Source of the DNA: Gammaproteobacteria bacterium
GTDB lineage: Bacteria > Pseudomonadota > Gammaproteobacteria > UBA12402
DNA: 64,000 nt
Reading direction: 5' to 3'
Assembly: GCA_050123335.1 (NCBI GenBank)
Contig: JASFHH010000005.1
Location: 792-64,791, forward strand
The translations under genes and the position numbers were made by a program. The notes beneath the pieces are model-generated. The model did no database searches, was not told where the DNA came from, and saw only the letters and a program-made list of their open reading frames with translations. Every line of letters starts with the position of its first letter. The stretch's first letter is position 1. Positions 9,331 through 32,417 of this stretch are shown here, one piece after another.

Positions 9331-9358
9331 GTCATCCCGCGGCTTGACCGCGGGATCC
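9331..9358. repeat. REP-like hairpin (same family)
   Basis: gtcatcccgcggcttgaccgcgggatcc. Confidence 0.6.
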
Positions 9359-9364
9359 ATGTTG

Positions 9365-10081: not shown

Positions 10082-10086
10082 TATTT

Positions 10087-10740: not shown

Positions 10741-10752
10741 GTTGCTCTCCTG

Positions 10753-11655: not shown

Positions 11656-11674
11656 AATTATTCCCTCTTATATA

Positions 11675-11986: not shown

Positions 11987-12318
11987 TCAAATATTTCCTC
12001 TTTATCTAAAATTCCAACATCTTCTTGATTAACTTGATCTACAATTCCGGTAATCGCAGCATCAACAGGTGTAAATGAATCTGGTAAAGTTAATGCAGCT
12101 TCTCTTGCTGTTATCCAATGTACTAAATCATTTAATCCTGCTTTTACCACTGGATCAACTGCAGCAATTGGTTTGCCTGTTGGTTTTAGATCGTCATTTA
12201 ATGGCTGAATCATTAAAATTTTTATGCCGTTTAAAGCCTCATGTTTTTGTGTTGCAACTACTGTGCCGATTACTTTTGCTAATTGCATTTTATATTCCTG
12301 TCCAATAAATTTCTTCAA
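11983..12318 (-). CDS. BMC vertex protein (BMC-P; EutN/PduN family), second copy
   Basis: MQLAKVIGTVVATQKH...IKILMIQP...ITGIVDQV. A more likely start is the M at 12288, which avoids overlap with the upstream gene. Confidence 0.75.
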   Translation of the reverse strand: MKKFIGQEYKMQLAKVIGTVVATQKHEALNGIKILMIQPLNDDLKPTGKPIAAVDPVVKAGLNDLVHWITAREAALTLPDSFTPVDAAITGIVDQVNQEDVGILDKEEIFE

Positions 12319-12853
12319 TCAAATCCGGATGCGGTGCTGGAATAATTTCACATCCTGCTAATAATCCTTCGGTTTTAATGTGTTTTTTTGCTGCATCAAT
12401 TGAAGCTTCAATGTCAGCTAATTTTCCGGTCATCACAAAATAACCTTTACCACCTAAACCGTTCGCTAATCTAATTTCTACTAATTTTGCTGGTGATGTT
12501 TTAGCGGCTAAATCTGCTCCAACAATGCAGGATGCGATTGAAAAAGTTTCGATAATACCAACGGCATCAAATTTTTTTATTTCAGTTGTTCCGGCAACAG
12601 CGGGAATCACATCCAAATGAATTTGCGGTAAGAATAAATTATTAATTACGCCATCATCGCCAACGTTAATACCTGCTTGCAATGATTCTTCGACATCGGC
12701 AACTTCGCCCGCAAAAATAACCATATATTTACCTGGGCAGATTGGGTTGCTGTTAAGAATTGTAACCGGAGCTTTTTTGGCAATTGCATCAGTTGCAAAC
12801 ATGCCTCGTGCTACTGAGTTGAATTCAATTAGTCCTAGCGATGGTTTTTGCAT
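12290..12853 (-). CDS. BMC shell protein, tandem-domain BMC-T of PduT type
   Basis: 187 aa with two BMC domains (LGLIEFNSVARGMFATDAIAKKAPV... and AVGIIETFSIASCIVGADLAAKTS...). A Cys in the second domain is consistent with the Fe-S-binding PduT type. Confidence 0.8.
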   Translation of the reverse strand: MQKPSLGLIEFNSVARGMFATDAIAKKAPVTILNSNPICPGKYMVIFAGEVADVEESLQAGINVGDDGVINNLFLPQIHLDVIPAVAGTTEIKKFDAVGIIETFSIASCIVGADLAAKTSPAKLVEIRLANGLGGKGYFVMTGKLADIEASIDAAKKHIKTEGLLAGCEIIPAPHPDLIEEIYWTGI

Positions 12854-14183
12854 ATTTAATCTCTATATAATTATCATTTACCTCAGTTATTTTGCCGTCA
12901 ATTGACGCGTGATAAACGGCGCCTAACTTATCTTGCGGCGTAGCCGCTATAATATCACATCTGCGTACCATTTGTCCTAGATTAACTTGGGAAATTGCAG
13001 GTGCTCCAACGTGTTTGTTTAGCGGAATGCGTACCATTTTGATTTGCTGTATTCCTGCAAAAACCGGTTTGCAATTATATTTTTCCAAGTTAAGTTTTTT
13101 CATTACCATTTGAATCGATGGTTTACGATTTTTAAATTGTGAATTGGCTTTAGCCGGTGCATTTTTATGTGGGCTTTTTACTCCACGAGATATTAATTCG
13201 CTTTTATATTCTGCAAAAATTTTGCGAGGTGAAAGATGCATAAAATCACAAGCAATCAATTCACACATGCCGCATTGGCTACATAAAAAAGCAGAAGTAA
13301 TATGCTTTGTTGGTTCAGCACTGTTGTATGCTATTGTGCGCATTGTCATGTGCGGATATAATTCGTGTCCTAATAAATTGCGCGGGCAAAGATCGGTGCA
13401 GCGAAAGCATTGGCAGCATGCAGATTTTGTTTGTTTGATTATTTGTCCCAAAGGTTTTTTTGCTTTACGAATTAATAAGTGATTTTTAGGTAATGCAATT
13501 ACACCACTGGTAGTTTTACCGATACCTTGATTCCAATCATCAACAATTTTTCCCATCATCGGGCCGCCATCAATTAAAACAGCGTCTTTAATTTTTAAGC
13601 CACCTGCTAATTTAATTAAATCGTTGTAAGTTGTGCCAATTGGAACAATTACAACTTTTGGTTCGCGAAGTTCTCCAATTAAAGTTACTGCGCGTTCAGT
13701 TATCGGTTTGCCGTTAACTGCATGTGCAATCTGCATTAAAGTGATTACGTTATTTACGACAATGCCAACGTTTAATGGGATGCCGCCTTCGGGAATTATT
13801 TTTCCGGTTACTTCATACACTAATAAAAATTCATCGCCTGCGGGATAATAATTATCTAACAAATGTAATTTGATCGATCCATCAGATGGTAAATGTTTTT
13901 TGATTGCATCAATTGCGTCGTGATAATGCGATTTTAATGCAATAATTCCTTGCTTAGCAGAAGTTGCTTGCATTGCATATTTCATGCCTTCGATTAATAA
14001 TTCTGGTTTTTGTACCATCATGGTGCGATCGCTGGCAAGAAGTGGTTCGCATTCAGAACCATTAGCAATGATGGTATCAACTTTTGTTTGTAATTTTACA
14101 TGTGTAGGAAATCCGCCGCCACCTGCGCCAATTATTCCGGCGTTTTTTACAGCTTGCACAATTTGTTCCGCTGTTTTTGGCAT
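12825..14183 (-). CDS. PduS/RnfC-family NADH-dependent Fe-S flavoprotein
   Basis: N-terminal GAGGGGFPTHVK (RnfC/PduS nucleotide-binding) motif. Two Cys clusters, CCQCFRCTDLCP and CSQCGMCELIACD, indicate 4Fe-4S ferredoxin-type sites. Confidence 0.8.
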   Translation of the reverse strand: MPKTAEQIVQAVKNAGIIGAGGGGFPTHVKLQTKVDTIIANGSECEPLLASDRTMMVQKPELLIEGMKYAMQATSAKQGIIALKSHYHDAIDAIKKHLPSDGSIKLHLLDNYYPAGDEFLLVYEVTGKIIPEGGIPLNVGIVVNNVITLMQIAHAVNGKPITERAVTLIGELREPKVVIVPIGTTYNDLIKLAGGLKIKDAVLIDGGPMMGKIVDDWNQGIGKTTSGVIALPKNHLLIRKAKKPLGQIIKQTKSACCQCFRCTDLCPRNLLGHELYPHMTMRTIAYNSAEPTKHITSAFLCSQCGMCELIACDFMHLSPRKIFAEYKSELISRGVKSPHKNAPAKANSQFKNRKPSIQMVMKKLNLEKYNCKPVFAGIQQIKMVRIPLNKHVGAPAISQVNLGQMVRRCDIIAATPQDKLGAVYHASIDGKITEVNDNYIEIKYAKTIARTN

Positions 14184-15616
14184 CAGACAATCCTAAAATA
14201 TCCGCTTAATACACATCTTCTAATTCTGGTAAAGTGACGTGCGGTAGTAACACCTTCGCCGGTAGGTGAAGCAATGGTAAAAGATGCTGGACCTTCACCT
14301 TCAATACCGAGTCCTGCAAGTGCCGGACCATTTTTTACAAAAATGGAGGTATTCATTTTTACCGCCATTTTATGCAAGTGTTCAACATTTTTTGAATGCA
14401 TAACCGAAGTATGAAAACATCCATCTTCTAATTGATAAGCAATTTCAATTGCTTCATCAACATCGTTTGCACGAATAAATGGTAATACCGGCATTAATAA
14501 TTCTAATTTTGCAAATGGATGATTAGCATCAGTTTCAACAAAAGCTAAACGTTTAGATGGATCGACTTGCAATCCAATTTGTTGCAAAATTAATTGAATG
14601 TCTTTGCCAACCCATTTTTTATTTGGGTGGCCATCTTGCACAATAATTTTTTCTAATTGTTTAGCTTGGTAATTATTAAGTTCAACTGCGCCATGTTTAA
14701 TTAATGCTTTTTTTAATTCGTCTGCGCAAGCGCGAGTTGCAATAATATTTTTTTCAATTAAACAAATAATATTATTGTCAGTGGATGCACTTATCACAAT
14801 ATCGCGGCCGGCTTTATCAATATCTGCAGTTTCATCAACTACAACTGGAGGATTGCCTGGTCCTGCAGCAATAACTTTTTTGCCGGATTGCATTGCGGCA
14901 TCTACTACAGCAGGGCCGCCGGTAACTACCAGCAAATTAATTTTTGGGTGTTTCATTAAAGTTTGTGCTGATTGAATTGTTGGGTTGATCACGGTTGTGA
15001 TTAAGTTTGGCGGACCACCAGCAGAAATAATTGCTTTATTAATTAAGCTGATAGTTAAGACAGATATTTTTTTAGCGCTTGGATGTGGATTAAAAGCAAC
15101 AGCGTTGCCTCCAGCAATCATAGCAATGGTATTGCTGATAATTGTTTCTGATGGATTAGTGCAGGGCGTGATAGAACCGATTAATCCATAAGGTGCATGT
15201 TCTAAAATGGTTAAGCCGTTGTCGCCGGTAAAAGTTATTGGTTCTAAATCTTCTATGCCCGGAGTGTTGTTAATTGCCAATTCATTCTTTTTTAATTTAT
15301 CTTCGTATCTACCAAGTCCAGTATCGGAAAGTGCTAATCGTGCAATTTGTTCAATGTTTTCGGTACAGATTTCACGAATAGCAGTAATGATTTTTTTACG
15401 TTGCTCTATCGGAATGGTTTTATATTCGAGGAAAGCTTTTTCTGCAGCAAGAATTGCTTCTTCGATATCAGTAAAACACCCCGGGGTGTCATTAGTTTGT
15501 GTGGTGATATTTGGTTTTTGTGGTGCGCTTTTTATTTTAGTTTCCGCAGCAGGAATTACCAATTTATTAACTACACGATCGACAATCGAACTTATTTGTT
15601 GTTCGCTAATAGACAT
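14183..15616 (-). CDS. CoA-acylating aldehyde dehydrogenase (EutE/PduP family) with N-terminal encapsulation peptide
   Basis: ALDH fold with catalytic Cys context (SITPCTNPSE region). The N-terminal amphipathic helix QQISSIVDRVVNKLV followed by a Pro/Thr/Gln linker is typical of PduP/EutE targeting peptides. Confidence 0.85.
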   Translation of the reverse strand: MSISEQQISSIVDRVVNKLVIPAAETKIKSAPQKPNITTQTNDTPGCFTDIEEAILAAEKAFLEYKTIPIEQRKKIITAIREICTENIEQIARLALSDTGLGRYEDKLKKNELAINNTPGIEDLEPITFTGDNGLTILEHAPYGLIGSITPCTNPSETIISNTIAMIAGGNAVAFNPHPSAKKISVLTISLINKAIISAGGPPNLITTVINPTIQSAQTLMKHPKINLLVVTGGPAVVDAAMQSGKKVIAAGPGNPPVVVDETADIDKAGRDIVISASTDNNIICLIEKNIIATRACADELKKALIKHGAVELNNYQAKQLEKIIVQDGHPNKKWVGKDIQLILQQIGLQVDPSKRLAFVETDANHPFAKLELLMPVLPFIRANDVDEAIEIAYQLEDGCFHTSVMHSKNVEHLHKMAVKMNTSIFVKNGPALAGLGIEGEGPASFTIASPTGEGVTTARHFTRIRRCVLSGYFRIV

Positions 15617-17098: not shown

Positions 17099-17383
17099 TT
17101 ATAAAGAATCTGGTTTTTCCAACGACTTTTCCTTTTCAGTTGCAAGCCGGCGCTCGACTTTTTTAACATCTTCAGCAGCAGGAAGTGTTTCGGGTTGAAT
17201 ACCTCTTTCTAATAAAGTGTTACGAACTGCAGTATTGTTAGTGACGTGTTCTTTGGAAACTTCGGTTTCTGTTTTCATATTATGTTCTTTTTTATCTCGA
17301 ATAAGAGTAAAATTTTTATTTCCTCCAGTTTGCTCATAAATAGAGTTTATGTGCTGCAGCACATAAAATTTACGCGCGTGCAA
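17099..17383 (-). pseudogene. dinD: dinD (DNA-damage-inducible protein D) C-terminal fragment
   Basis: …KEHVTNNTAVRNTLLERGIQPETLPAAEDVKKVERRL… matches the DinD C-terminus. The DNA is ~85% identical to 20676..20880. Confidence 0.55.
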
Positions 17384-17684: not shown

Positions 17685-18689
17685 GTGATGTGCAAATCGC
17701 TGAAAATTTTTGTGCTAAAATTATCATGCTTAATGGCGTTTTTTTATCTTGCGATTTTTAATAATGCTTTTGCTTCCAACAACCAAATAACAATTATACC
17801 ACGATATAATATGGAAATTTTCAATCAAAAAATAACGAATATTTACACAAATCCAATTGCTCATAGCAAGGATATAAAAAAAAGAATCAAAGCAGACAGT
17901 CAGCATTTTATCTACAAGTCTTATTTGAACGGAGCACTTGGGGAAGGACCAAAAGCATTGTTTGACAAAAGCCCTTTGTATAGAACGGATATGTTTGATT
18001 GTACTACTTTTGCTAGCACTGTTTTGGCTTTGGTAGAATCAAACAATTTAATTGAATTTAAAAAAAATATCTTAAAAGTTAGATACAAAAACAATGCGGC
18101 ATTATTCATTAATCGCAATCATTTCATCAGTGTGGATTGGAATATCAATAATGAAAAGCAAGGTTTTTTAAAAGACATTAACAGTAAAATTCTTGATGAG
18201 AAAGGAAATCCTATAGCTGTAACTGCAAACGCTTTTATAGATAAACCCAATTGGTATAAGCATTTGCGGGCAAGCACCATCAAATCATTTTATGCAATGC
18301 CAAAAGAGAAAGTAAAAATTTTATATAAAGCACTGCATGATTGCAGTTATAAAGTAAAACCACAGGCTAGCAAAATATTGTATTTGCCATTTAGCAAGCT
18401 ATTTACGAATGGTGCACCTAATCAACAACTATTTGATCAAATACCATCAGCAACAGTTATTGAAATTGTCCGACCAAACTGGAATTTAAAAGATATCATC
18501 GGAACCAATATTAATATTTCCCATATGGGGTTTGGTATCCGCATCAAAGGCAAATTGATATTTAGAGAAGCATCCTTTGTGGATAAAAAAGTTGAAGATG
18601 TCGACCTTGAAAAATATTTAGCGCAGTACCTCAACAGCTCAACTATAAAGGGAATTCGTGTTGAAAAAATTGTATTGCAACACCGATAA
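17685..18689 (+). CDS. Secreted hypothetical protein (signal peptide, 334 aa)
   Basis: N-terminal signal sequence MMCKSLKIFVLKLSCLMAFFYLAIFNNAFA. Lies between two dinD fragments and has no confident family assignment. Confidence 0.45.
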   Translation: MMCKSLKIFVLKLSCLMAFFYLAIFNNAFASNNQITIIPRYNMEIFNQKITNIYTNPIAHSKDIKKRIKADSQHFIYKSYLNGALGEGPKALFDKSPLYRTDMFDCTTFASTVLALVESNNLIEFKKNILKVRYKNNAALFINRNHFISVDWNINNEKQGFLKDINSKILDEKGNPIAVTANAFIDKPNWYKHLRASTIKSFYAMPKEKVKILYKALHDCSYKVKPQASKILYLPFSKLFTNGAPNQQLFDQIPSATVIEIVRPNWNLKDIIGTNINISHMGFGIRIKGKLIFREASFVDKKVEDVDLEKYLAQYLNSSTIKGIRVEKIVLQHR

Positions 18690-18789
18690 AAAGTGACACA
18701 TGCAGATATTATACGCAGTAATTTCACCTAAAGTCTGCATGAAATCTGGGCTTCCTTTTTACAGACCATTTTGTTGACGTCAACAAAAT

Positions 18790-18975
18790 GGTCTGTAGTG
18801 TTATGCTTGGAATTTGTACAGGCTGCTTTTGCTTTGGCTATAACATTATGGAAATTTCTCCATTCTTCATAACCTAACAATTGTTGCAGCTCACGTGCTA
18901 GCCAAAATTCTACACCGTCTTCAGTTTTTTGAGCATGTTCTTCAAAGTTATTTGTTAATGTGTAAATAAAAATCG
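18790..18975 (-). pseudogene. dinD: dinD N-terminal fragment (start codon mutated)
   Basis: DNA ~80% identical to 21390..21600, the 5' end of the dinD-like ORF. An upstream palindrome cagaccattttgttgacgtcaacaaaatggtctg parallels ccattttcctgacgtcaggaaaatgg at 21362. Confidence 0.5.
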
Positions 18976-18986
18976 TTTTAATTTTC

Positions 18987-20102
18987 TTAATGCCATCTAT
19001 ATCTAAATTTTAAATTATTGAATTTATTATATCCAATATAATTCATATGCTGAAGCCGTCCCACAAGAATGCCTGGGGCAATATTCAATTTTTTGGCAAA
19101 TTCAATAATCAGGGCGGTACTCAGTTTATCATTTTTCTTTAACCATTCATTTAAGCGTGATGAAGGGATTAAAGTTTCTGCTGCATATTTATCTGCTTCT
19201 AATTCTTCGGAAGATTTATTTACAGTCTTGTTATTTATTTCAACAAAAAATTCTTTTTTGCTGTGTTTAATTATGTGACCTATTTCATGAAAGATTGTGA
19301 ACCATAAAATGTCGGCTGTTTTACCTCTTAAGCTTAATTGAACTAATGCTTTTTCAGGATTCAACCAGCAAGAAGCTCCATAAATAGGAACTTTTGGAAA
19401 AGGCTTTATAAAGACAATGGCGATTCCACAATCAGCACAAATATTCTTTAATTTAGGAACAAATATTTCTGGATCTTTTTCTTTAGTAAGCGCGCGCATT
19501 TGATCGAGTGATGAAATTAATTTTTCTTTATCAAATAGTTTGCATTGAATTTTTTCTCCTTCAAGCTCTCCCTTTCTTAACCAAACGCTAATAGCACCAA
19601 TATCTGATTTTAGATTCATGGCTTTCCTAAATGCAAGCCGTCGCCGTGTCCATCCTTGTTCCCATTGCTCTGGTGTGGCTACTCCAAAAAAATTTAATAT
19701 GGCAATCATTTGCTCCGCAACAGTATCGCCACATTTAAGAAGCCAACCTCTTTTTTTCATTTCTTTGATTGGAAACTGCTTAAGCCAATCTTTTTCTGCA
19801 GTTAAACGTTCTAACTCTTTTTGCTGGGCAAGGTAAGCACGGTAATTGGCTTCTCTTTGATTCCAAAATGCAGCAGGAGTACCAAGTGCTCTTTCCAACT
19901 GAATAGCTGTCTCTGAAGTAATTGCGGCTTTACCTTTGATAATTTCGTTGATAGTTTTTAATGGGCGACCAATACGTTCTGCAAGCGCTACTTGAGTCAT
20001 ACCTCGTTCTTCAAGAATTTCAAGCAATGTTGCTCCAGGGGCAGAAACGATGTCTGGTTGGTAAAAAAGTTTACTTTTTTCAATCATGGGTATCCTCCAC
20101 AT
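18987..20102 (-). CDS. HigA-like XRE-family HTH antitoxin fused to ImmA/IrrE-family zinc metallopeptidase (COG2856)
   Basis: N-terminal HTH (LLEILEERGMTQVALAERIG…) and a C-terminal HEXXH motif (FHEIGHIIKH). Likely start at MIEKSKLF. Confidence 0.7.
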   Translation of the reverse strand: MWRIPMIEKSKLFYQPDIVSAPGATLLEILEERGMTQVALAERIGRPLKTINEIIKGKAAITSETAIQLERALGTPAAFWNQREANYRAYLAQQKELERLTAEKDWLKQFPIKEMKKRGWLLKCGDTVAEQMIAILNFFGVATPEQWEQGWTRRRLAFRKAMNLKSDIGAISVWLRKGELEGEKIQCKLFDKEKLISSLDQMRALTKEKDPEIFVPKLKNICADCGIAIVFIKPFPKVPIYGASCWLNPEKALVQLSLRGKTADILWFTIFHEIGHIIKHSKKEFFVEINNKTVNKSSEELEADKYAAETLIPSSRLNEWLKKNDKLSTALIIEFAKKLNIAPGILVGRLQHMNYIGYNKFNNLKFRYRWH

Positions 20103-20415
20103 TTATTATTTTTATAGCGTTAACTAAATTCCAATTTATTCCACCACCATCTTTTTTATTTATACTCTTATTTGTTGGTTCAAATATCAATCTTAATGGA
20201 TGTTCCAAATCAAGAGAAAGCAACCCTTTTTTATCACCTATTAGTTCGTGGCAACGACCTGGTAATGTCTTAAAAGCTTCTAAATTAGGAGCAGCTTGTA
20301 AATCATCAAGGCGCGCTCTAATCTTTCGGGCACAATTTTTACCATAAGTTTTAAGCAACTTTTTTTCTGAGTTACAGATTTTCTGAAGCTTTTTATTTTT
20401 AAAGGTGATCTCCAT
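20080..20415 (-). CDS. higB: HigB-like toxin (RelE/ParE superfamily, plasmid-maintenance killer type)
   Basis: …ARKIRARLDDLQAAPNLEAFKTLPGRCHELIGDKKGLLSLDLEHPLRLIFE… is the HigB/RelE-like pattern. Sits upstream of and overlapping the HTH gene. Confidence 0.7.
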   Translation of the reverse strand: MEITFKNKKLQKICNSEKKLLKTYGKNCARKIRARLDDLQAAPNLEAFKTLPGRCHELIGDKKGLLSLDLEHPLRLIFEPTNKSINKKDGGGINWNLVNAIKIINVEDTHD

Positions 20416-20548
20416 GTTATAAATGCGTCTACCCTTATTTTTATTAATAATTATTAAAAAGTGTAGTATAGATTTCGTGGCAAGTCAAATTATATTTAAC
20501 CTTTTGGGTTAAATATAATTTAGAAAATTCAACGTTTTGGGAATTATT

Positions 20549-20577
20549 TGGTGGAGGCGGCGGGAATCGAATCTGCG
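20549..20577 (-). other. Partial copy of the tmRNA (ssrA) 3' end: att-site remnant of an integrated element
   Basis: tggtggaggcggcgggaatcgaatctgcg vs the authentic ssrA 3' end at 32061 (tggtggaggcggcgggaatcgaacccgcg). Preceded by ttttgggaattattt, shared with the 21686 copy. Confidence 0.6.
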
Positions 20578-20628
20578 TTATAGCTTATTGATTTTTGAAC
20601 CGTGGAAACAATCATACAATTCAAATTT

Positions 20629-20652
20629 AACCCCATCGAATTCGATGGGGTT
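20629..20652. repeat. GAATTC-centred hairpin, copy 1 of 3 (others at 21807..21830 and 22059..22082)
   Basis: aaccccatcgaattcgatggggtt / aatcccgtcgaattcgacgggatt / aaacccatcgaattcgatgggttt. The stem changes are compensatory. Copies 1 and 3 are preceded by caaatttaa. Confidence 0.5.
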
Positions 20653-20675
20653 AGAATACTACTTTTATTATAAAG

Positions 20676-21582
20676 AATCCGGTTTTTCCAACGATTTTTT
20701 CTTTTCTGTGGCAAGCCGACGTTCAACTTTTTTAACATCTTCAGCAGCAGAGCGTTCTTCAGGACAAATGCCTCTTTCTAATAATGTTTTGCGAACAGCT
20801 GCGTTGTTAGTAATATGTTCTTGCGAGACGGCAGCTTCTGTTTTCATGTTATGTTCTTTTGCATTAAAAATAGTAATTTCTGTAGCAAAATCTTTAGCCT
20901 TTAAAATGATTGTGGGAGCAAAATCAGCTAAAGGGCGATTTTTTGCTGAAGGTCATTCATGACCTTCAGCCCTTACGGGGCGCACTTCGTGCGACAAAAA
21001 TCTGCAGTCCTGCAGATTTTTTGGAACATTCCATTGATCTTTCATTTCTTGAGTTGTTTTTCTAAAAAGTGAAAAATTACCTTTATCTCGAATAAGAGCA
21101 AAATTTTTATTTCCCCCGGTTTGTTCATAAATAGTTTTTGATAATTCTTTTTCGGTAGTAGCTAATTTTTTACGTGCGGAAACACGTTCAATCTCTAAGA
21201 GCTTTTGTTCAATTAATTCTGTTCGGCGGGTTTGTATGGCGAAGTAAGTTTGCGCAAAGGCAATTTCTGATTTCTTTGGATCGCCATTTTGTGCAATTAG
21301 ATAGCAAGCGTAGCGGGTAAGCATGATGTCGTTGACTTCGCGTTGGCTACCAGAACCCAGTTTGACCATTTTCCTGACGTCAGGAAAATGGTCTACGATA
21401 TTGTGTCCAGAAGTTGTACATGATGCTTTTGCTTTGACTATAACATTAAGAAAATTCTCCCATTTTTCATAACCAAGCAATTGTTGCAATTCGCGTGCTA
21501 GCCAAAATTCCACGTCATCTTCAGTTTTTTGAGCATGTTCTTCAAAGTTGTTTGTTAACGCATAAATAAAATCAGTTTTCAT
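20676..21582 (-). pseudogene. dinD: dinD-like gene disrupted by a ~180-bp palindrome-rich insertion (20880..21060)
   Basis: The N-terminal 175 aa match DinD (…WLARELQQLLGYEKWENFLNVIVKAKASCTTSGHNIVDHFPDVRKMVKLGSGSQREVNDIMLTRYACYLIAQNGDPKKSEIAFAQTYFAIQTRR…). The frame then runs into gaaggtcattcatgaccttc / cgcacttcgtgcg / tctgcagtcctgcaga palindromes, and the C-terminal coding segment resumes out of frame. Confidence 0.6.
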
Positions 21583-21685
21583 TGTTAAACCTCTATTTTT
21601 AATTTTTAAAATTATCAAACGGTAGATTATCGCAAATAAAAAAATTAAAAACTAGCGTAAAAACTACGGGGTTTTGGGAATTATT

Positions 21686-21708
21686 TGGGCGGTGGGAATC
21701 GAACCCGC
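21686..21708 (-). other. Second partial tmRNA 3'-end copy (att remnant)
   Basis: gggcggtgggaatcgaacccgcg, preceded by the same ttttgggaattattt as the 20549 copy. Confidence 0.55.
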
Positions 21709-22469
21709 GTTGTAATTTGTTGATTTTGGCGGTACAGCTATTGATACTACTAAAATGAGAAGTCAGATAGTCTGAACTGATCGGGAATTCCGAATAGTTG
21801 AAATCTAATCCCGTCGAATTCGACGGGATTAGAATACCGCGTGGGGACAATTTGTTCCTTGGTAGCTTGATCAATTGTAGACAAATTGTCGACGGTTTGC
21901 ACTGATTAAATTTAAGCCAAACGTTTTGCCGACGTCGTCAAAATGGTATAAATTATTGAGTAGCAGTTATAAAGAAATTCTTTACAACTGATCTCATTCA
22001 TCTGAAGTTGCGAAACAACCTGTTTCGCAATTACGAAAAAATTGTACAGTTCAAATTTAAACCCATCGAATTCGATGGGTTTAAAATCAGTATTATTAAG
22101 TTGGTTCCAAAATACCCAAAAACTTAATCGTATTGCGATTTTGCAACTTGCTAAACTCAGAAAACAGAAGGTGTTTTAAAAAACCGAAAATACTTATTTA
22201 TTGAAAGTGATTATTAATTATTAATAAATTTAGTGAAATAAAGGATTGTATTTTCTAAATATTGAGGTAGAATAATCGGCCACTGGGAGATTTGTTCAAA
22301 ATCTCACCTGCCAAGAATAATAAAATCATAAAATAAGGTTCAGGCATTTCTCTTGAATTGCTGTCAGATATGGATATTCCTTTTGAACATGGAGCGCATT
22401 GGTCGCTTATTTTCTTAATAGAGTTAATTAGTAATCTAAAAAATTTAATAGTTTTAGGAGAAGAAATAT

Positions 22470-23195
22470 ATGTTTATTGTTGATGAAAAGCAAAAAAAAG
22501 AATGGAGAGGTATACAGTGTGTATTAACTTCGCCTATTGCGTTGTCCTATTTAATTTTGATGTTATTCGCGGTTTTTTTGGCAAATTTGTTTAATGATAT
22601 AAGAGTAATTCACTTAATGTGTGTAGCTGCCTGTTCAATTTCCGCTGGGTTTTTTGGTAGTAAATGGCAAGAGATTGTTAAACAAAGCGAAAGTGATGAA
22701 ACTATACTTTCGCGAGGACAAATGGCGATACGACGATTAAATAACTTATTATCAAATCTGAAAACAACTATTGACACAATTGAAAAATTTCTGGAATTTC
22801 AAATTGAAAATAGCGATAAAAACGCTTTAAAAATATGGTTAGAAAGCTTAGTAAGACAAGTAATTATGATACAAAAAGAAGGCGTAAGTGCTATTGAGGA
22901 TTGGGGTGATTTAATGCCAGATTATAATGTTAAAAAACATGTTGATCTTATAGGAGAATTACGTAGTGATGTTTTAAAAATTAAGAAAGAAAAAGAAGAA
23001 ATAGAAAAGAATAAAGTAATTGAGTCAGAAGAAAAAGAAAATAAAATAAAATATTTAACGAAAGAGTTAGAGATAAAAACAGCAGAGTTACAAGAAGAAC
23101 AACAAAAATTTAACGCATCGCTTTTTGGAGGATTAGATTTTGGTACAATTGATAAGAAAAGTTATTCTGAGCTGCTTTTAGATCTTAAACAATGA
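22470..23195 (+). CDS. Membrane-anchored coiled-coil protein (241 aa), first gene of a putative three-gene Abi-like module
   Basis: Two predicted N-terminal TM helices followed by a Glu/Lys-rich coiled coil. Layout is reminiscent of 2TM effector-associated domains. Confidence 0.45.
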   Translation: MFIVDEKQKKEWRGIQCVLTSPIALSYLILMLFAVFLANLFNDIRVIHLMCVAACSISAGFFGSKWQEIVKQSESDETILSRGQMAIRRLNNLLSNLKTTIDTIEKFLEFQIENSDKNALKIWLESLVRQVIMIQKEGVSAIEDWGDLMPDYNVKKHVDLIGELRSDVLKIKKEKEEIEKNKVIESEEKENKIKYLTKELEIKTAELQEEQQKFNASLFGGLDFGTIDKKSYSELLLDLKQ

Positions 23196-23229
23196 GATTT
23201 TTTAAGAAATTTTTAAATGAGAGGAAAAC

Positions 23230-24057
23230 ATGAGCAAATGGGATCAAATTGTTACTAGTGATGTTAATGATAAAACAGAATTAAAAAATTTAGAAAATGA
23301 TTATGCAAGAGGAGAGTTTTTGCAGAATATGTTAATTAGTACGGCTACAGGCGGTCAATCTCAGAGAGATGATCAATACAAAAAGTTAAGAAGATATTTC
23401 ATGGAAAGTGAACATGCCAATTTATTGCCTTTTTGGGTTAAGAGTAATAGAGATCTGGGAAGTTTCTGGCCATTTATACAAGAACAATTTTCAACTTATC
23501 GAGAAAGACGCGCTTTTATAAGAACAGAATTTGATCGTTTATTGAGTGCACTAGAAGCAAATTGTACTTGTCTGATTGTTGAGTCTGTTAATTTAACAAT
23601 GCGGCAGATAACACATGCAAATTTAAATTCATATTGGAATAAGGCTATAAAAAGAGTAGGGACTGATCCAGAAGGAGCTATTACAATAGCTAAAACATTA
23701 TTAGAAGGGAGTTGTAAGGAGATACTAGATCGTCAATGTGTAGAATATGATGATGACAAAATAACATTACCAAAATTATATAAAATAACAGCCAAATCAT
23801 TACAACTACATTCTACGCAACATATTGAAAAAATTTTTAAGAGTATCTTAGGTGGTTGTTCTGCGATAGTTGGAGGACTTGGCAATGTTAGAAATGAGCT
23901 TGGTGATGCACATCATCGTAAAATAAAACCATTACGTAGACATGCTGAATTAGCTGTTAATATGGCGGGGTCGATGGCAAAATTTTTATTTCAAACTTTA
24001 GAAGACAGAATGGAAATTAAAAAAGGAAAAAAACAAAGCAACGATAACATTAATTAA
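23230..24057 (+). CDS. HEPN/Abi_C-domain protein (AbiJ-like abortive-infection family)
   Basis: C-terminal Rx6H HEPN-type motif within GLGNVRNELGDAHHRK. Overall resembles Abi_C (abortive infection C-terminus) proteins. Confidence 0.55.
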   Translation: MSKWDQIVTSDVNDKTELKNLENDYARGEFLQNMLISTATGGQSQRDDQYKKLRRYFMESEHANLLPFWVKSNRDLGSFWPFIQEQFSTYRERRAFIRTEFDRLLSALEANCTCLIVESVNLTMRQITHANLNSYWNKAIKRVGTDPEGAITIAKTLLEGSCKEILDRQCVEYDDDKITLPKLYKITAKSLQLHSTQHIEKIFKSILGGCSAIVGGLGNVRNELGDAHHRKIKPLRRHAELAVNMAGSMAKFLFQTLEDRMEIKKGKKQSNDNIN

Positions 24058-24186
24058 TTTGGAATATACGCTATTTAAATTTATTTTAGTAAAAAAATAT
24101 GTAAATTTTTGGATTGTAAGAAAAAATGATAAATTTAATATAAAGCGTATCTTATTAATATATTAGTTTCAAGTAAAGGTATTTAC

Positions 24187-24816
24187 ATGATTTGGTCAAA
24201 AATTTTAACATTTTCTAATATAACCAGTATTATTGCAGTTATAATTAGTTTTATTTCTATTTTGATTGCTGGTTTTTCTACTTGGTGGCAATTTCTTAGA
24301 AGGCCAAAAATTAAAGGCATTTTTTCTGAGATTGCATTTGAAAGGCAGGGTGGTGGATATAAACCAACGAAGTTGAGTAATATTGTCGAACCATTCTTTA
24401 TATTAAAAAACATAGGAGCAAGATCAGCAATAGTTGAAAATATAAGATTAAAATTTTTTTTTGATGGAGAATCTTTTTACGCATATCCTTATTTAAAACC
24501 AGCAGAATCGATAGTTACTTGGGATGATCAAAAAGTAAAAAGACATTTTGTTGGTTTAATTTTGCCGTTTAACGAATCTTGGAAATGTGATTTAAAATTC
24601 AAATTAACAAATAAAAAGGATTTTTCTAATATAGGTAATCTTACAGGAACAGTTTTGTTGGAACTAAAATTTATTAAAAAAGGTTGGGTTATGGTAGATA
24701 CAAATACTTCCAATTTTTCATTTACTCGTGAGGAGATACAGATAGATGAGTCTTGGAAAAGGAAATCTGATTTTTATTCAAAAAAAATTTTTAAAAATTT
24801 TAGATCAAATTCATAA
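24187..24816 (+). CDS. Hypothetical protein with N-terminal TM anchor (209 aa), third gene of the module
   Basis: Hydrophobic N-terminus ITSIIAVIISFISILIAGFSTWW. Co-directional with the two preceding genes with short gaps. Confidence 0.4.
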   Translation: MIWSKILTFSNITSIIAVIISFISILIAGFSTWWQFLRRPKIKGIFSEIAFERQGGGYKPTKLSNIVEPFFILKNIGARSAIVENIRLKFFFDGESFYAYPYLKPAESIVTWDDQKVKRHFVGLILPFNESWKCDLKFKLTNKKDFSNIGNLTGTVLLELKFIKKGWVMVDTNTSNFSFTREEIQIDESWKRKSDFYSKKIFKNFRSNS

Positions 24817-25124: not shown

Positions 25125-25364
25125 AGTGGTCAACCCACGTATTATTCGTCAAACACCGCAACTCATTTGTTGCGCGCAGACGTTGATGTCAATACAATTA
25201 GAGCTTGGTTTGGTCATGTCTCAATTAATACAACCAATATTTATGCTGAGGTTGATATTGAGATGAAGGCTAAAGCGTTGGCATTATGTGAGATAGTAGA
25301 AATTAAACAAAAACTAAATTGTAATTATAATAAAAGTTTAAAGGGTTTTTTAGATGCCTTTTAA
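25125..25364 (+). pseudogene. int: Tyrosine recombinase/integrase C-terminal fragment
   Basis: …TATHLLRADVDVNTIRAWFGHVSINTTNIYAEVD… is the catalytic tail of phage-type integrases (H-x-x-R…Y region). An upstream in-frame stop leaves only ~80 codons. Confidence 0.65.
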
Positions 25365-25392: not shown

Positions 25393-26309
25393 ATGATTAA
25401 AAATGTTCGCAAAAAAAACATCATTACTTAGCAAGAGTATACCTAAATGGTTTTTGTGATCAGAATAATATGGTTTGGTCATATCATAAAGATGATCTTT
25501 CAAAAATACATTGTCAAACACCAGACAATACAGCAATTGAAAAAAATCTTTATGCTGTGGATGGAATTGATGTTAATGTGTTTGAAGACTTTTTATCTGA
25601 CCAAATAGAAAGTCCAGCAGTAAATGCATTAAAGGAATTACAAAAAGGTCAACTGCCATCAAATAATGATAGACTTGTTTTAGCAAAATTTTTTGGCTTC
25701 ATGTTAGTACGAACTCCGTCATATAAGGCTTCTAATGAACAGCCATTTGAGCGTGAATCTAATATGTTACTAAAATTATACGTACAACATAAAGAGTGTT
25801 TTCAAAATTGGTGTAATAAATATGAAGGAATCAATAATCAACCTATAGCTAAAGATATTGAGCGACTAAGGCAAGAAATCTTAAATGGAAAATACATACT
25901 AAAACCACATCATAATTTTAGTCTTAATACTATAGGAAAATTGGGTTTAAGCATTGATTCTTATTTATTAAATATGAAATGGATAATGATAAAAGCACCC
26001 AAAGGTTATTTCTTTTTAACTTCTGACAATCCTGTTATTATCACAAATCCAGAGTGCAATGGATTTTATTCAACAGGATTAGGACAAGAAAACACTAGAG
26101 TTTTTATCCCAATTTCAAAGGAAATTGGTCTTCTTATGGTTAATTTAGATATTGATGGTTTTGACAATCAATCAATTGATAATAATAGTGAGATTGTAGG
26201 GCATATGAATAAAGCAATCATTCTGTTTGCATCCAAATTTATATTTAGTCATAAAAAAAACGACGACATTACACAATTAATAAAAAAAGTAACTGAAAAT
26301 AAAAATTGA
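25393..26309 (+). pseudogene. DUF4238-family protein, frameshifted in an A8 homopolymer near the 5' end
   Basis: ATG at 25393 (MIKNVRKK…) hits a stop after 12 codons. One extra or missing A in aaaaaaaa (25411-25418) restores …KKHHYLARVYLNGF…, the DUF4238 N-terminal HHY-x-x-x-YL motif. The downstream body contains the DUF4238 hallmark TSDNPV. Confidence 0.6.
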
Positions 26310-26479: not shown

Positions 26480-26940
26480 TTATTTACTTTAATTAGTTGC
26501 CCCCCAGACTGCCCCCCCCCTGAAATTGGCTTTGTTTTGCAAAAAACAAAGGTAGTTTATTCTATTTGCATTTTTCTTATCAATCTGAGATACTAAAAAC
26601 GTGCTAGTAACACACATGCAAAGCGGTAAAACTGCGTCCGATAACCGCGGTTTTTTTGTACCTAAATGTCGGGCGTTCGTTGGAATACAATACCCTTGGG
26701 AAATACAGCGAGCCACGCTTTGCAGTGGTTACTAACGCCTGACACCAATTAAATTTGGGATTATTAGTAAAATTGCAAAGGAGTAAAATCATGTCACATA
26801 TTTCAAAAAAATTATCTTTATTTATCAATAAGTTAATTGATGCAGAATAGTAAAAGTCTTACACAACAATCAGATGTTTTTCGGTGGTTAAAACATGCTC
26901 AATCATCCATAATTACTATGCGCAAGCTTTCTGAGGAGGA
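26480..26940 (+). other. Structured non-coding leader with poly-C tracts, long-range inverted repeats and a 19-codon ORF with strong SD
   Basis: gttgccccccagactgccccccccc (C6 and C9 tracts). The 22-nt arm gtgctagtaacacacatgcaaagcgg (26601-26626) is complementary to ccacgctttgcagtggttactaac (26712-26735). Hairpin ctttgttttgcaaaaaacaaag. aaggag-N7-ATG at 26791 gives MSHISKKLSLFINKLIDAE*. Locally GC-richer than its surroundings. Confidence 0.3.
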
Positions 26941-26942: not shown

Positions 26943-28289
26943 TTGATGACTGCGAAAATACATCAACCAGCGTGTGAATTGACTGAAGGCTGTTGGGTTG
27001 ATTTTAGAGAAATGGTGCAACAAGTTGAACCGGAATTGTTTGACATCATTGAGAAAATAAACCCAAATAAAGAGCACAAATTAATTAAAGCCAGATATTT
27101 ATATGGCGAGCAAATTACTGATCTTGGTACCATTTGTGTTCCAGATAAATTTGGCCGTTTAGTACGTTTAGATAACGCTAATGTCTCCAGTGAGTTGCAA
27201 GATCAATTGGGCTATTGTCCTACGCCGCTAGTTTTGCAATTAAAAAATGCTGGTGAGGTTTTTGTTGAAACAGAAGATCGCATCGCGCCATTAAATATTT
27301 TTATGCCGGGGGATATGTACGGGTTATATGAAATTTTAGTTCCGCTTTCTGGTTGTCCAGCCGTACCTTGTTGGAGTATTACATCCGGAGGCAGATCGGT
27401 ATTTTTAGCATCTAAAATTACCGATGCAATCGGTCACAAAAAATTGCGTAAGGAATTTGGTGTATCACCAGTTCCACCGAAAAACATCAAAGATCAATGG
27501 GCAACTATGAAAACTATTGCTAACCGAGGCAGAAAAGATAATCCTTGGTCATCAGAAATATTAATTTTTACCAAAGAATGGTTTACCGAAAAAGATGACG
27601 ATATTAATTGGATGAGATTTCAAAACTACTTGATGAAAAAAGCGTGGTGGCAATCTCGAAGTACTCGCGCACAAATTGAATATAGTATTATGTGGGAATC
27701 TTTTGCTAAAGCAGTGTGTGCTAGAAATTTAAAACCTAGTTCTTATATTGTTGATACAGTAAAACATTTAATGCTATTAACTGCTGGCACAACTCCCGGA
27801 TTTAAAGCGATTGATACCAGTGAAAACATCATGCCGTCAAAGATTGTAGAAAAAGCATATACGGACATTTACGGTTTAAAAGATTATGCGGCCATTATTA
27901 TGCATCCTCACGTAACTAAATTAAATAGTCATGATGAGCAAGTTTATTACTCGATGGCCTATCCTACTTTAATTTCCGGCACGCCGTCTATTCGTAAAAA
28001 CACAAACACCATGACTGAAATTCGTGACGTGCAGACATTGATGAAAATGCTTGAAAAAATATTATCTTCTTATGAAGATCGTGTTCATAATTCAATGAAA
28101 AACGTTAAGTTTGAATATTTTCATAGTGATGAAGATCGTTTTGGGGAAATCCTAAATAGCCATAGCATAACTAAAACTGATGCGGCAATCTTAAATATTT
28201 TAAACGAACGTTTTCCTGGTAAAAAATTTCCTTCATACGGTTCATTTTTCAGAGGGTGCATTAGAATAAGCAGGAAGAATGTTGGTTAA
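26943..28289 (+). CDS. Hypothetical protein (448 aa), convergent partner of the rSAM-Nudix gene
   Basis: Long ORF with no recognisable motifs. Its 3' end overlaps the 3' end of the opposite-strand rSAM-Nudix gene by 48 nt. Confidence 0.5.
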   Translation: MMTAKIHQPACELTEGCWVDFREMVQQVEPELFDIIEKINPNKEHKLIKARYLYGEQITDLGTICVPDKFGRLVRLDNANVSSELQDQLGYCPTPLVLQLKNAGEVFVETEDRIAPLNIFMPGDMYGLYEILVPLSGCPAVPCWSITSGGRSVFLASKITDAIGHKKLRKEFGVSPVPPKNIKDQWATMKTIANRGRKDNPWSSEILIFTKEWFTEKDDDINWMRFQNYLMKKAWWQSRSTRAQIEYSIMWESFAKAVCARNLKPSSYIVDTVKHLMLLTAGTTPGFKAIDTSENIMPSKIVEKAYTDIYGLKDYAAIIMHPHVTKLNSHDEQVYYSMAYPTLISGTPSIRKNTNTMTEIRDVQTLMKMLEKILSSYEDRVHNSMKNVKFEYFHSDEDRFGEILNSHSITKTDAAILNILNERFPGKKFPSYGSFFRGCIRISRKNVG

Positions 28290-29978
28290 AAACATTTTTT
28301 TAGTTGTAGGAAATAATTGTAACGTTAACAAATTCTCTGGCGAAAAATATTTGTATTCTGCAATTTCTCGCTTGTCAATTTTGTATTTGTTTTTACAGCC
28401 ATTGTTTTCTGCAATCCACCAATGCAACTCATCTACATCGTAATCAGCATTAGATGTGCCTATTTTTTTGATGGGAATTACCGCTAAACCAAGCTCCTCA
28501 TGAGCTTCTCTGATAACTGCTGCTTCCTCTGTTTCACCTTGCTCAATTTTGCCATGAATGGGTGCCCAATGATCTTTGTATGGCTTTTTATTTTGTTTTA
28601 CCAACAGATATTTTCCGTTTTGTATAATAACTATAACTACACCCGAACGTTTTTTATCGGATACACTTGCCACATTAACTATGTCACCTTGCATATAACG
28701 TTCATATTGTTTTTTAGTTAGTGGAATTTGCATAATTTTGTTAGCATTCATACAAGCTTTATCATTGGATTTTTCATTGGTTAAATAGACATGCGCTTTA
28801 GTAAAATTAAAATTGGCGTTTTGCTTTAGTAAAGCTACGATGTTTGCAAAACTAATGTTATTTTCCTTATCGATGCAAAATTGACAGTTTTTTGGAATGT
28901 TTTTTTGAAAATCTTGGATGTGGCTATTATTTTTCAATAAAGTTGCTATAGATTGAGTTTTATCATTTATTGTGCCTATTTTAGCTTTTGGCATTATACC
29001 ATTGCGAGCTAGGCAACATAATTGTAATGATAAATCGGCTAATATGATAAATCTTAATCGTGATATCCAGCAGAAATTAAAATCATCTTTTGGTTTGAAA
29101 GATATTCCATATTGTTTTTCAATAATAAAATCTCTTTTATCTTTGATGTTTTGTTTGAATATATTTATTTGATTTTCAACAAATGGAATGATTTCAGGGT
29201 GATCATCGTAAACTTTTCTACAAATATTTTTTCTAATAGCAATCCAGTTAGCCCCCACATCATACATATCACACATAAATTTACTGATGTTGCGATAATT
29301 TTCCGGAAGCATAATAAAGGTAGCACCAATAAATAATTCTTGTTCTCTATTAAATTTAATAGCCTCAACATGAACCGTTTTTATTTTCTTAATCAAGTTT
29401 TCGTAATTATGTGCCTTATCATTTGATTTATGAACTTGATATCTGGAATTATTATCAAAAGAATCAACACTAATTCGTAAATGATGAACGTAGTTAGCAA
29501 TAGTTTTAATAATATTGCCTTGTAATAAATCACCATTCGTTTCGACAGTAATTTTTAATTTTAAATCGGCTAAATATTTTATAATTTCGATAATTTTAGG
29601 ATGATTTAGAGGATCACCACCACCAGTTAATCTAACACTTTTTCCACCTAAATTTTTGAAATCATCAAAGATAGATTTAAGTTGGTCTAATGGCAATGTT
29701 GAATTTAACTTGGAATTTAATTTCTTTGAAAAACACATGATGCAATTATTTGAACAGTTACTAGTAACATCAATATCTAATCTTATAGGCGATAAAGTTT
29801 GATTAAAATATGCGCTTTTTATCGCTTTTATCCACTCATCTAATTGCTCAGGAAACATCTTAGCGTGATTTTGGTAAAAAACATATGTCTTAGCATTACA
29901 TATAGCGCATATTGCATTCCATTTGCCGTATTGTCGATTAACAAGAATATTTTCGTGGTAATTGAAAACCATCTTCAT
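28242..29978 (-). CDS. Radical SAM (SPASM/twitch-like) enzyme fused to a C-terminal Nudix hydrolase domain
   Basis: CX3CX2C motif (CSNNCIMC) with a downstream GGGDPL SAM-binding motif. Additional Cys-rich region (CWISRL…LCCLARN…CQFC). Nudix box GKIEQGETEEAAVIREAHEELGL at aa ~470-495. An N-terminal CxxC pair is also present. Confidence 0.75.
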   Translation of the reverse strand: MKMVFNYHENILVNRQYGKWNAICAICNAKTYVFYQNHAKMFPEQLDEWIKAIKSAYFNQTLSPIRLDIDVTSNCSNNCIMCFSKKLNSKLNSTLPLDQLKSIFDDFKNLGGKSVRLTGGGDPLNHPKIIEIIKYLADLKLKITVETNGDLLQGNIIKTIANYVHHLRISVDSFDNNSRYQVHKSNDKAHNYENLIKKIKTVHVEAIKFNREQELFIGATFIMLPENYRNISKFMCDMYDVGANWIAIRKNICRKVYDDHPEIIPFVENQINIFKQNIKDKRDFIIEKQYGISFKPKDDFNFCWISRLRFIILADLSLQLCCLARNGIMPKAKIGTINDKTQSIATLLKNNSHIQDFQKNIPKNCQFCIDKENNISFANIVALLKQNANFNFTKAHVYLTNEKSNDKACMNANKIMQIPLTKKQYERYMQGDIVNVASVSDKKRSGVVIVIIQNGKYLLVKQNKKPYKDHWAPIHGKIEQGETEEAAVIREAHEELGLAVIPIKKIGTSNADYDVDELHWWIAENNGCKNKYKIDKREIAEYKYFSPENLLTLQLFPTTKKMFLTNILPAYSNAPSEK

Positions 29979-31946: not shown

Positions 31947-32060
31947 AAAAATTGCTCCAAGTTGGAAATTAGTAGAGAAGATTATTAGCTGCGTAAAATT
32001 ATAAGAAGTTGATCTTTTAATGCAAGCTGTTTAATTATAGATTGTTATGGAAAGGCAGTT

Positions 32061-32417
32061 TGGTGGAGGCGGCGGGAATCGAACCCGCGTCCGCGAACTC
32101 TCCGCCATCGGTTCTACATGCGTAGCTAATCATTAAATTTCATTATTTGCTGCCCGATTAGCAGGGATCACAAATAACTAGCCTAAGTTAAATTTAGCGG
32201 TATTGCCTTAGGCGCACTTTACCGCGAGCTTATGAAATATGACCATCAGATTCAAGCGCATAAGCACACTTGGGTGATGGGCTGTGCCTGTTTAAGCGGC
32301 GACAGCGTAAAGTTCGTCGTTTGCGACTACTTTGTTGCAGCATGATTTACGAGGTTAAGCTACGTCCTCGGCATGCCCCTTTGGTTTTGCAATCCACGTC
32401 GAAGCCGGGTCGCCCCC
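32061..32417 (-). ncRNA. ssrA: tmRNA (ssrA)
   Basis: The 5' end GGGGGCGACCCGGCTTCGACGTGGATTGC… pairs with the 3' end …GCGGGTTCGATTCCCGCCGCCTCCACCA. Internal tag reading frame GCAAACGACGAACTTTACGCTGTCGCCGCTTAA gives ANDELYAVAA*. Confidence 0.85.

Follow-up and report, generated by a model that had tools for sequence, protein, structure and literature searches.

A predicted solitary Abi_C/HEPN defence RNase in a decayed tmRNA-integrated island of a gammaproteobacterial MAG

Three genes on the same strand, named g1, g2 and g3, were analysed in a window of 64,000 nucleotides of a low-G+C gammaproteobacterial MAG. The middle gene, g2, is quite probably a solitary HEPN defence RNase, and g1 and g3 are then unrelated cargo of the same tmRNA-integrated island, independent of g2. 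By analogy, g2 is assigned to the AbiJ/SadR type, a very widespread family of anti-phage genes that encode stand-alone HEPN RNases, in which it is an unremarkable member. That g1 lies beside g2 is best put down to the tendency of defence genes to cluster in islands.

Gene layout and the Abi_C/HEPN protein g2

The ORF list of the window placed all three genes on one strand with the same coordinates as in the initial annotation, and the public MAG record also annotates them as genes (locus tags PVI75_01820 to _01830). The features are as follows:

22470–23195, + strand: g1, ORF of 241 aa
23230–24057, + strand: g2, Abi_C/HEPN protein of the AbiJ/SadR type, 275 aa
23890–23913, + strand: HEPN catalytic motif RNELGDAH (R221, N222, D226, H228), g2 residues 221–228
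24187–24816, + strand: g3, ORF of 209 aa

A gap of 34 bp separates g1 from g2 and one of 129 bp separates g2 from g3; close spacing therefore holds for the first pair only. The initial annotation had described three tightly spaced co-directional genes; the shared direction stands for all three, and the tight spacing stands for g1–g2 but not for g2–g3. A separate ribosome-binding site was present for each of g1 and g2. Because the gap is only 34 bp and no terminator-like site was found between them, g1 and g2 are probably co-transcribed at the present locus. A promoter scan of the locus, where the DNA is AT-rich, performed no better than on shuffled sequence. An identical g3 was present on other contigs with the g1–g2–g3 order kept; since all of these contigs were assembled from the same population, they do not count as independent evidence.

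Residues 181–254 of g2 matched Pfam Abi_C (PF14355) with an E-value of 4.8e-17 and 62.3 bits, against a gathering cut-off of 24, and the match spanned model positions 1–82 of 83. The motif RNELGDAH fits R-x6-H, with a polar N following the R, and g2 shows the helical-bundle fold of HEPN domains. The proposal that the middle gene carries a HEPN motif in an Abi_C-like C-terminus was thus borne out. Residues R221, N222, D226 and H228 were invariant across a 26-sequence alignment of g2 homologues. The initial annotation had held that its reading would fail if the motif were not conserved in homologues; RNxxxDxH was found in 119 of 120 homologous proteins, and among the homologues encoded at the surveyed loci it was found in 78 of 81, two of the remaining three being truncated ORFs. 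Altogether 986 homologues of g2 were found, and among the matches listed the identity was 44–52% over 84–95% of the length. Homologues are listed as 'abortive infection family protein' in Klebsiella, Smithella, Acidobacteriota and Bacillota.

The N-terminal domain of g2 (about residues 20–125) is all-helical and strongly conserved within its own family, and it is likely the trigger-sensing part of these RNases. A Pfam search with residues 1–180 gave no match at E≤0.1, AbiJ_NTD models included, although Pfam may lack NTD1/NTD2 models. PDB sequence searches with the family profiles of g2 and of g1 returned coiled-coil or designed proteins only. Since the PADLOC AbiJ model aligned to residues 146–255 only and the N-terminus had no Pfam AbiJ_NTD match, g2 probably belongs to a subfamily other than lactococcal AbiJ. 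The AbiJ family was classed as HEPN in 2013; its N-terminal domains vary, and its solo genes often lie in R-M operons (PMC3710099). Like g2, AbiJ/Abi_C proteins combine a C-terminal HEPN domain bearing an Rx4-6H motif with a non-catalytic N-terminal domain, and the AbiJ solo genes found within R-M operons have a parallel in the g2 homologues that neighbour HsdS.

The nearest experimental parallel used here is SadR, the Staphylococcus aureus defensive RNase (Kondo et al., Nat Commun 2026), a 266-aa Abi_C protein with the motif RNEYGDAH (PMC13590631). As a single gene, SadR protects against both phages and plasmids, and its product degrades ssRNA; mutants of the R, N and H of its motif lost both RNase activity and defence (PMC13590631). 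SadR and g2 were compared by motif, size and architecture. Both are of similar size (266 and 275 aa), both have a C-terminal Abi_C domain and no recognised N-terminal domain, and the motif is near-identical and occupies the same relative position (residues 225–232 in SadR, 221–228 in g2). Each is a single-gene unit in a mobile-element integration hotspot, rlmH/SCCmec for SadR and ssrA for g2, whereas their hosts differ (Bacillota versus a gammaproteobacterial MAG). From the SadR and HEPN literature, we infer that g2 would be kept inactive in uninfected cells until its N-terminal domain senses a cue derived from phage or plasmid. The HEPN domain would then cleave single-stranded RNA, which would stop translation and block propagation of the phage or plasmid.

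Genomic context of g2 homologues and the flanking gene families

The context of g2 was surveyed at 80 genome loci from many phyla, with neighbours taken from crude ORF calling. The 419 neighbour proteins fell into 377 clusters, and the sole recurrent partners were type I HsdS (11/80 loci) and HsdR (5/80 loci). Neither neighbour was tightly co-directional at 37 of 71 loci, and on three annotated plasmids the g2 homologue was monocistronic, with opposite-strand genes on both sides. ORFs resembling g1 or g3 were found at none of the 80 loci (BLASTP E≤1; phmmer --max; for g1 also the family HMM), and the three closest g2 homologues likewise had no such neighbours. Membrane proteins made up 25% of genes at position −1 and 23% at +1, compared with 21–36% two to three genes away, and are thus not enriched beside g2 homologues. 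Across the 80 loci the g2 family has no conserved partner gene, as expected of a single-gene unit.

The initial annotation stated that the flanking genes encode membrane-anchored proteins, and hydropathy agrees, with two predicted helices in g1 and one in g3. In g1, the hydrophobic helices lie at residues 23–41 and 46–64. The AlphaFold model (pLDDT 80) shows a helical hairpin (first helix 22–41, second from 44) and then long helices up to residue 220, and PDB sequence matches to positions 153–226 were all coiled-coil proteins. The description of g1 as two transmembrane helices plus a long coiled coil therefore holds; the architecture is an N-terminal two-helix hairpin, a predicted helical cytoplasmic region and a coiled coil. 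A word-indexed homology search returned the query alone, which made g1 look like an orphan; exhaustive HMMER then recovered 310 cluster representatives with E≤1e-3, of which 58 had E≤1e-10, and the alignments covered almost the whole protein. Family members are mostly 250–310 aa long and share W12, P22, G63, G83, A86, E143, W145, D147 and P150, with an IExWxDIIPEA signature in the conserved helical domain. Many carry a C-terminal CxxC...CxxC zinc ribbon, which is absent from g1. Beyond coiled-coil noise, no relatives of g1 or its family were found in Pfam, PADLOC, PHROG or PDB; matches of family members to PADLOC LmuB and JetC were rejected as noise of this kind. A tblastn search of one family member against 72,556 plasmids gave no match.

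A resemblance of g1 to effector-associated 2TM modules or SLATT was not upheld, as neither g1 nor 25 family members had a SLATT Pfam match at E≤0.01. Like SLATT and other two-membrane-helix effectors, g1 has a two-helix hairpin, and by the positive-inside rule both of its termini are predicted to be cytoplasmic. Unlike in SLATT, the membrane helices of g1 occupy the very N-terminus, ahead of about 180 residues of helical and coiled-coil sequence, with the zinc ribbon in many family members.

The g1-family context was surveyed at 67 loci, mostly short metagenomic contigs with crude ORF calling. The genes were usually solitary, their surroundings varied and contained many restriction-modification genes and integrases, and the family recurs beside restriction-modification, GmrSD, OLD/AbiEii-type ATPase and integrase genes. 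An Abi_C gene was adjacent at 0 of 67 loci, and the single weak Abi_C-like match among them lay 2.7 kb away. No nucleotide-signalling enzyme or reverse transcriptase was among the top 25 of 101 neighbour Pfam families. There is some chance, which we rate as rather low, that the g1 family represents a novel family of membrane-anchored proteins that act as single genes in defence or abortive infection or, in a weaker variant, that g1 was recruited here as a partner of the Abi_C RNase.

The g3 protein has one N-terminal membrane helix (residues 12–30, hydropathy) and, by alignment, a conserved C-terminal domain. Only two relatives are known, with 49% and 43% identity. Each lies between a type IV coupling protein gene of the TraG/TrwB type, from which it diverges, and a MobA_MobL/TraI relaxase gene directly downstream, heading a relaxase operon in a conjugative element with no Abi_C gene nearby. 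A tblastn search of g3 against 72,556 plasmids gave no match, and no relaxase or coupling-protein remnant was found near g3 in the window. Because the only two relatives both stand first in relaxase operons, g3 most likely remains from a conjugative or mobilisable element.

The island at the tmRNA gene

The genes g1 to g3 sit in a low-G+C, defence-type genomic island of about 10.4–11.5 kb that is integrated at the tmRNA 3' end. The features of the island are as follows:

32061–32417, − strand: tmRNA gene (ssrA) (ARAGORN; Rfam RF00023, 219 bits)
20547–20578, unstranded: direct repeat of the tmRNA 3'-terminal 32 nt, distal att-like boundary of the island array (30/32 identical)
21679–21710, unstranded: second, more degenerate tmRNA 3'-end repeat, inner att-like boundary (22/23 identical in the core)
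25167–25364, + strand: C-terminal remnant of a tyrosine integrase, pseudogene (Pfam Phage_integrase positions 140–169 of 172, E 5e-4)
25470–26309, + strand: DUF4238 gene, independent single-gene defence candidate (Pfam DUF4238, E 9e-30; PADLOC DUF4238-Pers, E 1e-17)

Both repeats match positions 32059–32090; the window holds three matches, where shuffled sequence gave an expectation of 0, and the inner repeat lies about 760 bp upstream of g1. The nested att-like repeats suggest several tandem insertions at ssrA. The integrase remnant adjoins g3 and marks a decayed mobile-element junction just downstream of it; upstream of the remnant, stop codons occur throughout all three reading frames. The G+C content was 0.27–0.32 for g1–g3 and 0.37–0.44 for core genes. 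Nearby defence-type genes were a DinD-like PDC-S13 gene, DUF4238 and a radical-SAM/Nudix fusion; one DUF4238 protein alone guards E. coli from T7 (PMC9122126). As in known ssrA islands, foreign DNA is flanked by tmRNA 3'-end direct repeats, G+C is lowered and the cargo is of the defence/toxin-antitoxin kind. Unlike those islands, the present one is decayed, and its integrase survives as a remnant only.

Alternative readings of the locus

The initial annotation had favoured a membrane-linked three-gene Abi system over a solitary AbiJ. All three genes point the same way and both flanking proteins have membrane helices, which fits a three-component abortive-infection system; we nevertheless regard such a system as highly improbable. 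Synteny of the triplet in other genomes had been named as a check, and a lack of co-occurrence elsewhere as grounds for refutation; such a lack was the outcome, as the three families showed no cross-association, and the triplet occurred only in assemblies of the same population. In addition, 129 bp precede g3, whose relatives lie in relaxase operons away from Abi_C genes, and g1 lacks a SLATT signal. With no g1 or g3 relatives at the 80 g2-homologue loci, the data favour a solitary AbiJ-like gene. A lineage-specific g1–g2 operon appears unlikely; in it, g1 would sit in the membrane and act on the HEPN RNase as sensor, regulator or antitoxin, or would itself be a second effector that damages membranes, and g3 would be unrelated. 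In its favour are the 34-bp gap on one strand free of terminator-like sites, the defence-island-like contexts of both families and the same gene order in other assemblies, all from one population. However, a g1-family gene occurred at 0 of 80 g2-homologue loci, the one Abi_C-like match across the 67 g1-family loci was weak and non-adjacent, and both families are usually solitary. SadR also acts as a single gene, and membrane proteins are not enriched beside g2 homologues.

It is very unlikely that g2 serves, like AbiV, as the toxin in a type III-like toxin-antitoxin pair with a neighbouring non-coding RNA as antitoxin. The precedent is HEPN-AbiV, which requires an RNA component (review PMC13064643), and the AT-rich 129-bp spacer after g2 might offer a place for such an RNA. 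However, the predicted folding of this spacer does not exceed that of its shuffled versions (z −0.7), the spacer has no Rfam match, only low-complexity A-rich runs and no tandem-repeat array were found near g2, and g2 homologues do not have conserved flanks. The reading of g2 as a solitary HEPN defence RNase, with g1 and g3 as independent island cargo, is therefore preferred.

This analysis keeps a false 'new three-gene system' out of catalogues. The g1 family is a sizeable, unannotated membrane-protein family and a reasonable candidate for defence screening. As predicted here, g2 adds one member to the stand-alone Abi_C/HEPN defence RNases, a class that was already recognised and has now been validated by experiment, and the g2 family has an N-terminal domain that is conserved yet unannotated.

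The middle gene g2 and its family

Three co-directional ORFs had been claimed in the initial annotation, and all were found on the + strand at exactly those coordinates:

22470-23195, + strand: g1, 241 aa
23230-24057, + strand: g2, the middle gene, 275 aa
24187-24816, + strand: g3, 209 aa

The public MAG record (Gammaproteobacteria bacterium) calls the same three proteins under tags PVI75_01820 to _01830. The gap between g1 and g2 is 34 bp, with a purine-rich ribosome-binding site ahead of each gene, and an AT-rich spacer of 129 bp lies between g2 and g3. Membrane helices had been proposed for both flanking proteins, and a Kyte-Doolittle scan placed hydrophobic helices at residues 23-41 and 46-64 of g1 and at residues 12-30 of g3.

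The Abi_C-like C-terminus and RNELGDAH motif read in the middle gene were confirmed: residues 181-254 of g2 matched Pfam Abi_C (PF14355; 62.3 bits, cut-off 24), and the motif occupied residues 221-228. A total of 986 homologues were found at E<=1e-3. Among the 120 listed, most were 245-280 aa long with 44-52% identity and 84-95% query coverage, all contained PF14355, and those with a name (from Klebsiella, Smithella, Acidobacteriota and Bacillota) were called 'abortive infection family protein'. The motif was conserved as RNxxxDxH in 119 of these 120 and in 78 of 81 homologues from fetched loci, where two of the three exceptions were truncated ORFs. R221, N222, D226 and H228 were invariant in an alignment of 26 homologues, as were T40, R54, P67, R74, F79, W80, F82, Y90 and R93 in the strongly conserved N-terminal region, which was recognised by no library. 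The g2 family was matched over its full length by phrog_23253 (E 3.5e-62) and was present on 67 plasmid records. The PADLOC AbiJ model covered residues 146-255 of g2 only; thus g2 and lactococcal AbiJ have the same HEPN module but probably different N-terminal domains.

The flanking genes g1 and g3

It had been proposed that g1, g2 and g3 form one membrane-linked Abi module. For comparison of neighbours, 80 genomic loci with g2 homologues were fetched from Proteobacteria, Chloroflexota, Bacillota, Bacteroidota, Planctomycetota, Verrucomicrobiota, Campylobacter and a Paceibacterota MAG. None of the 80 loci held a relative of g1 or g3 (BLASTP E<=1; phmmer --max), and the g1-family HMM gave no match on them. 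The 419 flanking proteins fell into 377 clusters, and no partner recurred other than type I R-M specificity subunits, at 11 loci, and HsdR, at 5. Membrane helices were predicted in 25% of the neighbours at position -1 and 23% at +1, versus 21-36% at positions two or three away, with no enrichment directly beside the g2 homologues of these loci. Neither neighbour was co-directional within 60 bp in 37 of 71 loci, and three annotated plasmids had opposite-strand genes on both sides of the g2-family gene. Even the three closest homologues (50-52% identity), which have an N-terminal extension in common with g2, had no g1- or g3-like neighbours. With the partners absent and the flanks this diverse across the 80 loci, the three-gene module is unsupported, and it is highly improbable that g1, g2 and g3 work as one system.

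Two neighbours of g2 homologues are of note. At L015, one of the 80 loci, a co-directional 184-aa protein lies 48 bp upstream of the g2 homologue; its two membrane helices span residues 41-59 and 66-84, and it is SLATT-like by eye and has no sequence kinship to g1. At L157, the 233-aa neighbour (1222-1923, - strand) of the second-closest g2 homologue bears the HEPN-like motif EIRNIFAHHHG, which suggests a second HEPN gene.

A word-indexed homology search with g1 returned the query itself only; exhaustive HMMER returned 310 cluster representatives at E<=1e-3, of which 58 reached E<=1e-10. Members, mostly of 250-310 aa, could be aligned across almost the whole protein with 20-34% identity. A W and a P ahead of the first membrane helix, a G within the second, an RGKxAIRxLKLLL helix, an IExWxDIIPEA signature and a coiled coil mark the alignment, by which this is a real family; most members end in a CxxC...CxxC zinc ribbon that g1 itself does not have. 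The context of the g1 family was compared in 67 metagenomic loci, where 243 neighbouring proteins formed 195 diverse clusters and the multi-member clusters derived from near-duplicate contigs. When Pfam families were tallied over 118 non-redundant neighbours, those ranking highest were phage integrases, NYN, DNA methylases, Mrr_cat, GmrSD_N, AAA_21/AAA_15 and several restriction endonucleases, interspersed with housekeeping enzymes. This tally and the diversity of the neighbours indicate that the g1 family tends to occupy defence or mobile regions alone. The g2-family HMM gave one weak match on the 67 loci (E 7e-5), at a distance of 2.7 kb from the g1 homologue. Because of the short g1-g2 gap and the lack of a terminator-like site between the two genes, g1 may be co-transcribed with g2; a lineage-specific coupling of the two is unlikely.

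Only two relatives of g3 were found (49% and 43% identity), and identical g3 copies on other contigs came from assemblies of the same population. For both relatives the next gene downstream encodes a MobA_MobL/TraI relaxase, while a small gene and one for a TraG/TrwB-type coupling protein are transcribed divergently from them. There was no Abi_C gene near the two, no relaxase or coupling-protein remnant within the window, and no g3 relative in the plasmid collection. These relatives sit in conjugative-element backbones with coupling protein and relaxase (locus L001 and the contig of P0124). Ankyrin or leucine-rich-repeat proteins and an ETX_MTX2-ankyrin protein are encoded there too, a hint that the hosts are intracellular bacteria.

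The ssrA-integrated island

The following features surround the three genes:

17099-17348 and 18764-18983: degraded DinD/Bro-N copies, 81-90% identical
18987-20415, - strand: HigB-like toxin gene (111 aa) overlapping a 371-aa HTH and M78-peptidase gene
20547-20578: repeat of the last 32 nt of the tmRNA 3' end, 30/32 identical
20605-20657, 21783-21835 and 22035-22087: 53-nt repeat containing the palindrome CCCATCGAATTCGATGGG
20953-21618, - strand: DinD/Bro-N gene (NCBIfam DNA damage-inducible protein D, E 2e-77; PADLOC PDC-S13, E 7e-82)
21679-21710: more degenerate tmRNA 3'-end repeat
25167-25364: tyrosine-integrase C-terminal remnant, stop codons in all upstream frames
25470-26309, + strand: DUF4238 gene (Pfam E 9e-30; PADLOC DUF4238-Pers), directly after the remnant
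26668-26751, + strand: sRNA-Xcc1-like match (Rfam), full model length, E 4e-6, 48.4 bits (gathering score 53)
26943-28289, + strand: 448-aa ORF with no family match, convergent with the next gene and overlapping its 3' end
28242-29978, - strand: radical-SAM/Nudix fusion, 578 aa
32059-32090: tmRNA 3'-end copy at the gene (repeat match)
32061-32417, - strand: tmRNA gene

The tmRNA 3'-end core had three matches in the window versus none expected, and these copies bound nested or tandem ssrA-integrated islands. The 53-nt repeat sits immediately internal to both distal att-like copies; its third copy (22035-22087) has no att. The G+C content of g1-g3 is 27-32%, whereas tpiA, smpB and the genes of the microcompartment reach 37-44%. 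The 371-aa protein matched PADLOC PD-Lambda-2_B (E 1e-38) and RmrA/CapP-type models. The DUF4238 family has been reported to act in E. coli as a single-gene anti-T7 defence (PMC9122126), and the sub-threshold sRNA match lies in the spacer between this gene and the 448-aa ORF. The radical-SAM half of the fusion gave a partial prokaryotic viperin match (E 3.5e-19, model positions 5-137 of 257), and the Nudix half matched PADLOC PDC-S07. The g1-g3 stretch is a decayed, ssrA-integrated island with defence cargo, probably composite.

Between the degraded DinD/Bro-N copies is an AmiA-like amidase gene (17685-18689), a layout resembling an older copy interrupted by an insertion. Elsewhere, a bacterial-microcompartment cluster (8530-15616, - strand) encodes BMC shell proteins, class II and DeoC-type aldolases, an RnfC/Nuo51-like flavoprotein, an aldehyde dehydrogenase and a cytidylyltransferase, and an AAA_14/DUF4143 ATPase gene (1794-2960, + strand) matched PADLOC candidate PDC-S01 (E 1e-52).

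Proposed action of g2

Anantharaman et al. 2013 assigned the AbiJ family to the HEPN superfamily; its N-terminal domains vary and were proposed as sensors restraining a suicidal RNase, and its members occur as solo genes in R-M operons (PMC3710099). SadR, an S. aureus Abi_C protein of 266 aa with the motif RNEYGDAH, degraded ssRNA and not DNA or dsRNA, and as a single gene protected against phages and plasmids; the mutants R225A, N226A and H232A lost both activities (Kondo et al. 2026; PMC13590631). In the same study, 2,257 of 2,815 Abi_C proteins surveyed had no recognised N-terminal domain.

The size, architecture and motif position of g2 all fit the SadR class. g2 combines the Abi_C/HEPN fold and the catalytic motif with a helical N-terminal domain that is conserved, and the genes of its family are solitary in their genomic context. 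By analogy with SadR, we infer that g2 would act as a self-contained sensor-effector, in which the N-terminal domain would hold the HEPN RNase in check until an infection cue; g2 would then cleave ssRNA, stopping translation and the spread of the phage or plasmid. No RNA antitoxin was apparent near g2, where there were no tandem repeats and no Rfam match and the spacer fold had a z of -0.7.

Judged by its sequence, g2 is a further member of a known, experimentally characterised class. The g2 family's N-terminal domain, which carries no annotation, remains of interest, as does the unannotated g1 family, with at least 310 cluster representatives and its association with defence and mobile regions.
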